Source: Escherichia coli (GTDB taxonomy: Bacteria > Pseudomonadota > Gammaproteobacteria > Enterobacterales > Enterobacteriaceae). Taken from it: DNA of 64,000 bases. The position numbers were made by a program. The DNA lies in assembly GCF_013122565.1 (NCBI RefSeq), contig NZ_CP053258.1; one strand, given 5' to 3'. Shown here piece by piece: positions 60,480 through 63,400 of this stretch (positions are counted from its first letter, which is position 1; each line of letters begins with the position of its first letter).

Positions 60480-63400
60480 CTAAACTTGAATAAATTCAAT
60501 GGCTTTATTGGATATCCGCCGAAAAATGAAACGATGGACACCGAAGCCATGGGTGATTAAAGAGGCCGGATTGTAATAATTGTACACTCCGGAGTCAATT
60601 CTCTTTCCTTATTTACCGCGCTTTTCCGCACCTTTTCGCAGGGAAAATGTACGACCTCACACCAGTGAAAACCAGCATGGCGCGCCGGGTGGAGGATTAT
60701 ACGGGCTGACGGGTAAAGCGCAAGGATCGTCCTGGATCTTTATTAGATCGATTAAGCCAATTTTTGTCTATGGTCATTAAATTTTCCAATATGCGGCGTA
60801 AATCGTGCCCGCCTCGCGGCAGGATCGTTTACACTTAGCGAGTTCTGGAAAGTCCTGTGGATAAATCGGGAAAATCTGTGAGAAACAGAAGATCTCTTGC
60901 GCAGTTTAGGCTATGATCCGCGGTCCCGATCGTTTTGCAGGATCTTGATCGGGCATATAACCGCAGACAGCGGTTCGTGCGTCACCCTCAAGCAGGGTCT
61001 TTTCGACGTACGTCAACAATCATGAATGTTTCAGCCTTAGTCATTATCGACTTTTGTTCGAGTGGAGTCCGCCGTGTCACTTTCGCTTTGGCAGCAGTGT
61101 CTTGCCCGATTGCAGGATGAGTTACCAGCCACAGAATTCAGTATGTGGATACGCCCATTGCAGGCGGAACTGAGCGATAACACGCTGGCCCTGTACGCGC
61201 CAAACCGTTTTGTCCTCGATTGGGTACGGGACAAGTACCTTAATAATATCAATGGACTGCTAACCAGTTTCTGCGGAGCGGATGCCCCACAGCTGCGTTT
61301 TGAAGTCGGCACCAAACCGGTGACGCAAACGCCACAAGCGGCAGTGACGAGCAACGTCGCGGCCCCTGCACAGGTGGCGCAAACGCAGCCGCACCGTGCT
61401 GCGCCTTCTACGCGCTCGGGTTGGGATAACGTCCCGGCTCCGGCAGAACCGACCTATCGTTCTAACGTAAACGTCAAACACACGTTTGATAACTTCGTCG
61501 AAGGTAAATCTAACCAACTGGCGCGCGCGGCGGCTCGCCAGGTGGCAGATAACCCTGGCGGTGCCTATAACCCGTTGTTCCTTTATGGCGGCACGGGTCT
61601 GGGTAAAACTCACCTGCTGCATGCGGTGGGTAACGGCATTATGGCGCGCAAGCCGAATGCCAAAGTGGTTTATATGCACTCTGAGCGCTTTGTTCAGGAC
61701 ATGGTTAAAGCCCTGCAAAACAACGCGATCGAAGAGTTTAAACGCTACTACCGTTCCGTAGATGCACTGCTGATCGACGATATTCAGTTTTTTGCTAATA
61801 AAGAACGATCTCAGGAAGAGTTTTTCCACACCTTCAACGCCCTGCTGGAAGGTAATCAACAGATCATTCTCACCTCGGATCGCTATCCGAAAGAGATCAA
61901 CGGCGTTGAGGATCGTTTGAAATCCCGCTTCGGCTGGGGGCTGACTGTGGCGATCGAACCGCCAGAGCTGGAAACCCGCGTGGCGATCCTGATGAAAAAG
62001 GCCGACGAAAACGACATTCGTTTGCCGGGCGAAGTGGCGTTCTTTATCGCCAAGCGTCTACGATCTAACGTACGTGAGCTGGAAGGGGCGCTGAACCGCG
62101 TTATTGCTAACGCTAACTTTACCGGACGGGCGATCACCATCGACTTCGTGCGTGAGGCGCTGCGCGACTTGCTGGCATTGCAGGAAAAACTGGTCACCAT
62201 CGACAATATTCAGAAGACGGTGGCGGAGTACTACAAGATCAAAGTCGCGGATCTCCTTTCCAAGCGTCGATCCCGCTCGGTGGCGCGTCCGCGCCAGATG
62301 GCGATGGCGCTGGCGAAAGAGCTGACTAACCACAGTCTGCCGGAGATTGGCGATGCGTTTGGTGGCCGTGACCACACGACGGTGCTTCATGCCTGCCGTA
62401 AGATCGAGCAGCTGCGTGAAGAGAGCCACGATATCAAAGAAGATTTTTCCAATTTAATCAGAACATTGTCATCGTAAACCTATGAAATTTACCGTAGAAC
62501 GTGAGCATTTATTAAAACCGCTACAACAGGTGAGCGGGCCGTTAGGTGGTCGTCCTACGCTACCGATTCTCGGTAATCTGCTGTTACAGGTTGCTGACGG
62601 TACGTTGTCGCTGACCGGTACTGATCTCGAGATGGAAATGGTGGCACGCGTTGCGCTGGTTCAGCCACACGAGCCAGGGGCGACGACCGTTCCGGCGCGC
62701 AAATTCTTTGATATCTGCCGTGGTCTGCCTGAAGGCGCGGAAATTGCCGTGCAACTGGAAGGTGAGCGGATGCTGGTGCGCTCCGGGCGTAGCCGTTTTT
62801 CGCTGTCTACCCTGCCAGCGGCGGATTTCCCGAATCTTGATGACTGGCAGAGCGAAGTCGAATTTACCCTGCCGCAGGCGACGATGAAGCGTCTGATTGA
62901 AGCGACCCAGTTTTCTATGGCGCATCAGGACGTTCGCTATTACTTAAACGGTATGCTGTTCGAAACTGAAGGTGAAGAACTGCGCACCGTGGCGACCGAT
63001 GGTCACCGTCTGGCAGTCTGTTCAATGCCAATTGGTCAATCTTTGCCAAGCCATTCGGTGATCGTGCCGCGTAAAGGCGTAATTGAACTGATGCGTATGC
63101 TCGACGGCGGCGACAATCCGCTGCGCGTGCAAATTGGCAGCAACAACATTCGCGCCCACGTTGGCGACTTTATCTTCACCTCGAAACTGGTGGATGGTCG
63201 CTTCCCTGATTATCGCCGCGTTCTGCCGAAGAACCCGGACAAACATCTGGAAGCAGGCTGCGATCTTCTCAAGCAGGCGTTTGCTCGCGCGGCAATTCTC
63301 TCTAACGAGAAATTCCGCGGCGTACGTCTGTATGTCAGCGAAAACCAGCTGAAAATCACCGCCAACAACCCGGAACAGGAAGAAGCGGAAGAGATCCTCG

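Follow-up and report, generated by a model that had tools for sequence, protein, structure and literature searches.

The window analysed here, a stretch of 64,000 nucleotides (nt) of Escherichia coli DNA (NCBI RefSeq assembly GCF_013122565.1, contig NZ_CP053258.1), contains, in the spacer between the divergently oriented genes rpmH and dnaA, what is almost certainly the native p1/p2 promoter region of dnaA of an E. coli (or Shigella) chromosome, functioning as it does in strain K-12. Sequence identity, motif positions, a motif density beyond chance, and deep conservation are directly observed; DnaA binding, repression, and SeqA sequestration would be expected in this strain from K-12 experiments, given the near-identity of the two sequences, and the sequence holds nothing that argues against this reading. 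The region is a textbook promoter region that is already known. The value of the analysis lies only in annotation and quality control: the canonical elements of DnaA autorepression and of Dam/SeqA control are unchanged from K-12 and have been kept despite strain-specific insertions between oriC and dnaA.

Gene order around the spacer is that of K-12, with yidC, yidD, rnpA, and rpmH on the minus strand diverging from dnaA, dnaN, and the start of recF on the plus strand (all as open reading frames [ORFs]), and the spacer itself measures 606 base pairs (bp) in both chromosomes, as judged from the ORFs and the K-12 annotation. A preliminary description of the window, made from the sequence alone, had proposed a match to the known autoregulated, Dam-methylation- and SeqA-sensitive dnaA promoters and had named alignment to the K-12 promoter as the comparison on which this proposal could fail. 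Aligned with K-12 MG1655, the spacer is identical in 607 of 609 columns, without gaps, and this homology, taken together with the literature, supports the proposed match. The two substitutions are at 60668 (A for G) and 60710 (C for T), both of them upstream of the DnaA box discussed below by 146 bp or more. The second of them gives R in place of the K-12 H at residue 23 of the small protein YsdD, the sole amino-acid change in that product and the reason why some genomes label ysdD as encoding a ‘hypothetical protein’. The DnaA protein is the same as that of K-12 in 466 of 467 amino acids (H107 here for Q107), and the dnaA coding sequence (CDS) differs at 15 of 1,404 nt; at 0.33% versus 1.07% divergence, the non-coding spacer is thus better conserved than the CDS that follows it. 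A scan of positions 59500–61500 against Rfam at E ≤ 1 returned zero matches, and the spacer and the dnaA leader therefore hold no known RNA element.

The consensus DnaA box TTATCCACA (‘box 1’), which reads TGTGGATAA on the plus strand, was found on the minus strand exactly where the preliminary description had placed it, at 60856–60864. Five copies of the exact 9-mer (TGTGGATAA/TTATCCACA) are present in the window versus 0.53 expected, an approximately 10-fold excess (five copies were reached in 0/100 shuffles), and two of the four copies other than box 1 belong to oriC. At a distance of 21 bp from box 1, and in the same orientation, there is a second box-like 9-mer, TTTCTCACA (TGTGAGAAA on the plus strand), the TGTG core of which is kept in 24 of the 26 genera of the one-per-genus alignments described below. 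It is probably the published ‘box 2’, the exact sequence of which, like those of the DnaA-ATP boxes a–c, was taken from reviews; between p1 and p2, there is no further 9-mer within two mismatches of the consensus box. In K-12, the consensus box is sited between p1 and p2 and is needed for autorepression (PMC5835720). Box 1 and box 2 are bound by DnaA whether it carries ATP or ADP, and further sites require DnaA-ATP (Hansen and Atlung review, PMC5835720); another review (PMC8203912) lists the hexamer AGATCT as the box specific to DnaA-ATP, from Speck et al. (1999).

The preliminary description had additionally pointed to a run of GATC sites at 60914–60955 that precedes dnaA. The string that it quoted, GATCCGCGGTCCCGATCGTTTTGCAGGATCTTGATCGG (38 nt), is present verbatim with its four GATCs, but its true span is 60915–60952, i.e. 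1 nt away at the start and 3 nt away at the end; the run does lie in the dnaA promoter region, but it comprises the p2 −10 element and the initial ∼25 nt of the transcript from p2. Five further GATCs, including one in the p2 −35 element, had been missed. In all, nine GATCs are found in 226 bp (60725–60950), at 60725, 60735, 60746, 60823, 60891, 60915, 60928, 60941, and 60947, with spacings of 10, 11, 77, 68, 24, 13, 13, and 6 bp. The GATC count that had been suggested as a check thus gives nine sites versus 1.1 expected (Poisson P ∼2.5e-6), a number reached in 0/200 first-order Markov simulations of the window, the simulated maximum being seven. The run of four in 36 bp, taken alone, is only moderately unusual (6/200 simulations reach it). 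As in a SeqA cluster, GATC density is far over background and neighbouring sites are near enough for SeqA dimers, and the only denser place in the window is oriC (11.9–12.3 kb). The published count for the corresponding K-12 region is the same, with nine GATCs in 225 bp (PMC5835720). The dnaA CDS is also GATC-rich, with 15 sites versus 6.9 expected and eight of them in 250 bp from 61772 (cluster region 61727–62402), which makes it the third-densest cluster in the window; these 15 sites fit the replication-dependent signal over the whole dnaA gene that was published for SeqA in K-12 from chromatin immunoprecipitation on microarrays (ChIP-chip; PMC2912659).

Published work on K-12 allows these motifs to be read as promoter elements (Table 1). 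In K-12, the −35 and −10 elements of p2 each contain one GATC, and p2 has a CCGCGG ‘Travers box’ just upstream of +1 (PMC5835720), and five GATCs act at p2, namely those in the −35 and −10 elements plus three closely spaced sites downstream of the start (Iuliani et al. 2024, Sci Adv ado5398). The layout in the window fits this description in one way only, with the −35 and −10 GATCs, CCGCGG before +1, and three GATCs after the start. Because the −35 GATC lies inside AGATCT, the same bases would be used by RNA polymerase, DnaA-ATP, Dam, and SeqA; a second hexamer, GGATCT at 60940–60945, is one mismatch off AGATCT. From the literature description, the p2 start should be just downstream of the discriminator, ∼150 nt before the GTG codon of dnaA. 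For the distal promoter p1, the TACACT within GGATCGTTTACACT (60822–60835) is likely the −10 element, as suggested by its place upstream of box 1 and by the conservation of GGATCGTTTACACT across Enterobacteriaceae. Overall, the correspondence with the K-12 dnaA region (Hansen et al. 1982; Braun and Wright 1986; Campbell and Kleckner 1990; Speck et al. 1999; as reviewed in PMC5835720) extends to the same locus, the same flanking genes, and the same length, and each described motif (dnaA1p/dnaA2p, box 1, box 2, DnaA-ATP boxes a–c, and the nine GATCs) has its counterpart at the corresponding position.

Table 1. Coordinates of the dnaA promoter region, its neighbouring features, and oriC in the window (position 1 is the first letter of the 64-kb stretch).
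Feature	Position	Strand	Remarks
oriC	12017..12248 (cluster ∼11900–12270)		Mapped from the K-12 oriC annotation via a 98.7% alignment
rpmH (ribosomal protein L34)	60327..60467	−	ORF; corresponds to K-12 b3703 by alignment and annotation; divergent neighbour bounding the intergenic region
Sigma-70 promoter-like site, TTGACT-17-TACAAT	60570..60598	−	10/12 matches; putative promoter towards rpmH, outside dnaA control
ysdD, small ORF of 26 codons	60697..60777	−	K-12 annotation b4757 and translation; in the rpmH–dnaA spacer
Upstream GATC trio, sites 1–3 (60725, 60735, 60746)	60725..60749		Spaced 10 and 11 bp; inside ysdD
GATC site 4 (60823–60826), then TACACT (60830–60835)	60823..60835	+	TACACT is the candidate −10 of distal promoter p1
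Consensus DnaA box (box 1)	60856–60864	−	Between p1 and p2
Second DnaA-box-like 9-mer (candidate box 2)	60877..60885	−	Orientation as box 1, 21 bp from box 1
p2 −35 region, AAGATC (60889–60894)	60889..60895	+	Overlaps GATC site 5 (60891) and a perfect AGATCT (60890–60895)
p2 −10, TATGAT (60912–60917)	60912..60923 with discriminator	+	Overlaps GATC site 6 (60915)
CCGCGG discriminator (‘Travers box’)	60918–60923	+	Directly after the p2 −10
GATC sites 7–9 (60928, 60941, 60947)	60928..60950		Early p2 transcript; three sites mutated in the published ‘m3SeqA’ reporter
dnaA CDS	61074..62477	+	GTG start, 467 amino acids plus stop; protein begins MSLSLWQQ

Conservation was assessed both within E. coli and across the order. 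At least one complete E. coli genome matches the spacer at 100% identity, and 5,405 of 5,426 genomes carry 80% or more of the spacer length; the 106-bp core (60850–60955) has at least 99% identity in 5,422 of the 5,423 complete E. coli genomes that match it. For the cross-species set, a degenerate pattern in the N-terminal coding region of dnaA was used as an anchor in one-genome-per-species collections, yielding 120 loci, and the 92 Enterobacterales species with at least 450 bp upstream of dnaA were counted. Among these, TGTGGATAA is found in the same orientation in 88, a pair of GATCs spaced by 24 bp (GATC-N20-GATC) in 85, and the box together with the pair in the E. coli order in 82; additionally, TATGATC is followed within 45 bp by one to three more GATCs in 83. 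Among the exceptions are reduced endosymbionts (Ca. Pantoea edessiphila, Ca. Steffania, and Serratia symbiotica), together with a small number of genera (e.g. Budvicia and Xenorhabdus) in which single bases have changed. When one sequence per genus was aligned, box 1, the −35 GATC, and the −10 TATGATC showed no variation in 26/26 genera amid freely diverging flanks; the three GATCs downstream of the p2 start occupy the aligned position in only 8–16 of these genera and shift in exact position from genus to genus. Box 1 and the methylatable −35/−10 pair of p2 are, in other words, an order-wide invariant of Enterobacterales that was lost, in this sample, mainly in reduced endosymbionts, a result that agrees with existing knowledge, modestly extends it, and raises no new question.

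Outside Enterobacterales, the consensus box was absent within 450 bp at all 17 loci (Aeromonas, Oceanisphaera, Zobellella, and others), which have a median of seven GATCs. The box-less loci of Aeromonas (L012, L020, L038, L051, L062, L067, and L069) and Oceanisphaera/Zobellella (L022, L089, L099, and L116) carry 5–11 GATCs upstream of dnaA and display their own conserved GATC spacing (e.g. −129, −114, −97, −83, and −61 in Aeromonas).

If the region functions as in K-12, DnaA in either nucleotide form would bind box 1 and the neighbouring box 2. At high DnaA-ATP levels, this nucleus would be expected to spread cooperatively to weaker, DnaA-ATP-specific sites, including the AGATCT in the p2 −35 element, and the spread over p2 would occlude RNA polymerase and repress dnaA; at low DnaA-ATP levels, the same two boxes would stimulate p2. 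The nine GATCs would be targets of Dam, and full methylation of the −35 and −10 GATCs would approximately double p2 activity, as in K-12, where methylation of the p2 GATCs lifts transcription about two-fold (PMC5835720). A replication fork from oriC, 48.6 kb away, would arrive at the promoter within about a minute. Thereafter, the cluster would be hemimethylated and SeqA-bound, with both promoters silent for a substantial part of the cell cycle, such that DnaA synthesis would pause just after initiation; the K-12 dnaA region is sequestered for ∼1/5 of a generation, compared with ∼1/3 for oriC (PMC5835720). Finally, the GC-rich CCGCGG discriminator, which in the published work renders p2 sensitive to guanosine tetraphosphate (ppGpp; Iuliani et al. 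2024, Sci Adv ado5398), would add control by ppGpp and by growth rate.

Several points weigh against this account or against the evidence gathered for it. The genes dam, seqA, and hda are situated outside the 64-kb window. A sigma-70 consensus scan of 60300–61200 had the site at 60570–60598 as its sole match and called neither p1 nor p2, because the −35 elements of both match the consensus poorly; the promoter positions given here were accordingly taken from the published description. As the one-per-genus alignments used box-containing sequences for anchoring, the unbiased figure for the box is 88/92. In the literature, initiation stays synchronous when the three downstream GATCs are mutated, the GATCs of the −35 and −10 elements add little to SeqA repression (both Sci Adv ado5398), and deletion of box 1 alone fails to abolish autoregulation (PMC8203912).

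Some of these points could be taken to mean that the GATCs matter mainly as promoter and DnaA-ATP-box sequence (AGATCT and TATGATC), with Dam/SeqA sensitivity a minor by-product. Indeed, invariance is confined to two GATCs, one in the −35 element (within AGATCT, a DnaA-ATP box) and one in the −10 element (within TATGATC), the downstream trio drifts in position between genera, and the mutational results just cited (synchrony kept by the three-site mutant, little weight of the −35 and −10 sites in SeqA repression) point the same way. Nine sites in 226 bp plus 15 in the CDS nevertheless exceed what two functional hexamers need, and the fact that 83 of 92 species retain one to three additional GATCs in the 45 bp that follow the −10 element, though at shifting positions, suits a SeqA protein that reads density. 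Moreover, sequestration, SeqA chromatin immunoprecipitation, and the altered cell-cycle coupling of the m3SeqA reporter (three downstream sites mutated; Sci Adv ado5398) are experimental facts for the K-12 sequence. We therefore regard such a subordinate role for Dam and SeqA as improbable; the promoter/DnaA-ATP-box function and the SeqA function are in any case not exclusive, differ in emphasis, and are compatible with one another in the p1/p2 promoter model. That the motifs should instead be assigned to the divergent ysdD/rpmH–rnpA unit is very unlikely. The assignment would draw on the upstream GATC trio, sites 1–3 of which are inside ysdD on the rpmH-side strand, 10–11 bp apart, and kept in 15–18 of 26 genera. 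At most three of the nine GATCs would be concerned, however, and the conservation of the trio may just mirror ysdD codons; box 1 and GATCs 5–9 are 389–480 bp from the rpmH start, beyond the promoter-like site at 60570–60598, and coincide with the described elements of dnaA p2.

The vocabulary of a DnaA box and dense GATCs is shared with oriC in the same window, and one might accordingly take the element for a second origin of replication, or for a datA-like locus of DnaA titration or DnaA-ATP hydrolysis, instead of a promoter operator. It has a single consensus box, which sits between two promoters and directly upstream of the gene that it is known to repress, and it lacks a tandem array of AT-rich 13-mers (one match with two mismatches, versus three to four adjacent matches at oriC, 12205–12257). 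As multiple boxes and the 13-mer array are both lacking, an oriC-type origin or a datA-like locus was rejected, and we consider it extremely unlikely. Chance co-occurrence of a box and GATCs in an ordinary intergenic region, without any regulatory role, has next to no probability. A single 9-mer could arise by chance (0.53 expected per window), and so could, in the 6 of 200 simulated windows mentioned above, a run of four GATCs in 36 bp; a cluster of nine in 226 bp, on the other hand, arose in none of the 200 simulations, 5,422 E. coli genomes share an invariant core, the box and the 24-bp GATC pair persist in 82 of 92 Enterobacterales species amid freely diverging surroundings, and the sequence matches one that was dissected experimentally in K-12. 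A chance origin of the motifs was thus rejected on the density simulation and on conservation.

Within the dnaA p1/p2 promoter region, the upstream GATC trio deserves separate mention. Its sites have a GATC at the aligned position in 15–18 of 26 genera and are conserved in Enterobacteriaceae and Erwiniaceae, which may merely reflect the codons of ysdD (R-S, D-P, and R-S). Published promoter dissections, among the literature examined, concentrate on the five p2 sites and leave the trio aside. It is conceivable, though we think it doubtful, that the trio, inside ysdD and with sites one helical turn apart, is a separate Dam/SeqA-sensing element. If so, fork passage could be coupled through it to the divergent transcription of ysdD/rpmH–rnpA or to how long dnaA stays sequestered.

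Besides the K-12 dnaA region, oriC and the mioC promoter are the most similar systems known. In the window, oriC shows 13-mer matches at 12205–12257 and a GATC cluster of 18 sites in 400 bp; its consensus DnaA boxes are on the minus strand (at 12003) and on the plus strand (at 12183). It resembles the dnaA region in its TTATCCACA-type boxes and its roughly 10-fold GATC excess, and K-12 oriC is likewise sequestered by SeqA after replication. It differs in having several boxes, low-affinity sites, and tandem AT-rich 13-mers and in unwinding DNA, whereas the dnaA region, with one consensus box and without a 13-mer array, is a transcriptional operator. The mioC promoter, near oriC and DnaA-repressed, with one consensus box flanked by weaker boxes, is the structural analogue of the region upstream of p2 in the literature. 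It is a different locus (at ∼11.4–11.9 kb of the window), has five DnaA boxes, and is repressed by DnaA-ATP; it is reported not to be sequestered and to titrate ∼8 DnaA molecules, compared with 3–4 for the dnaA region (PMC5835720). The distance from oriC to the dnaA box is 48.6 kb here versus ∼41.8 kb in K-12 because of strain-specific DNA in between, and, by our estimate, the extra distance would add only seconds at normal fork speeds.

Comparison of the window with 50 kb of K-12 revealed two blocks that are absent from K-12. The preliminary description had concluded that the replication-control module is intact next to acquired DNA; intact it is, but ‘next to’ is a loose expression, as the nearest non-K-12 DNA (53985–56610) and the box are separated by 4.2 kb, an interval that includes five core genes (mnmE, yidC, yidD, rnpA, and rpmH). 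This 2.6-kb block, situated between the tnaC upstream region and mnmE, contains a single ORF of 728 amino acids (54277–56463, plus strand) with a ShET2-enterotoxin N-terminal domain (Pfam Toxin_15, E 6.6e-50). Relatives, annotated as ‘ShET2/EspL2 family type III secretion system effector toxin’, are present in 767 of 5,426 complete E. coli genomes. The allele is rare, with a best match of 95.1% identity in one strain and 80–90% in nearly all others.

The second block (31033–44890; 13.9 kb) stands in place of the K-12 DNA from cbrB to bglG (cbrBC, yieKL, and bglHBFG). It includes an ORF of 879 amino acids (37667–40306) without any Pfam match and two ORFs (40852–42039, minus strand; 42322–44748, plus strand) with weak, sub-threshold matches to pentapeptide repeats. 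It also carries a chaperone-usher fimbrial operon that consists of three DUF1120 proteins (31370–33575), a PapD-type chaperone (33591–34301), an usher (34311–36734), and an ORF of 192 amino acids. One of the remaining exact copies of the DnaA box TTATCCACA is inside the usher gene of this operon (36389–36397, minus strand), and another is at 51661–51669 (plus strand), in a region common to K-12.

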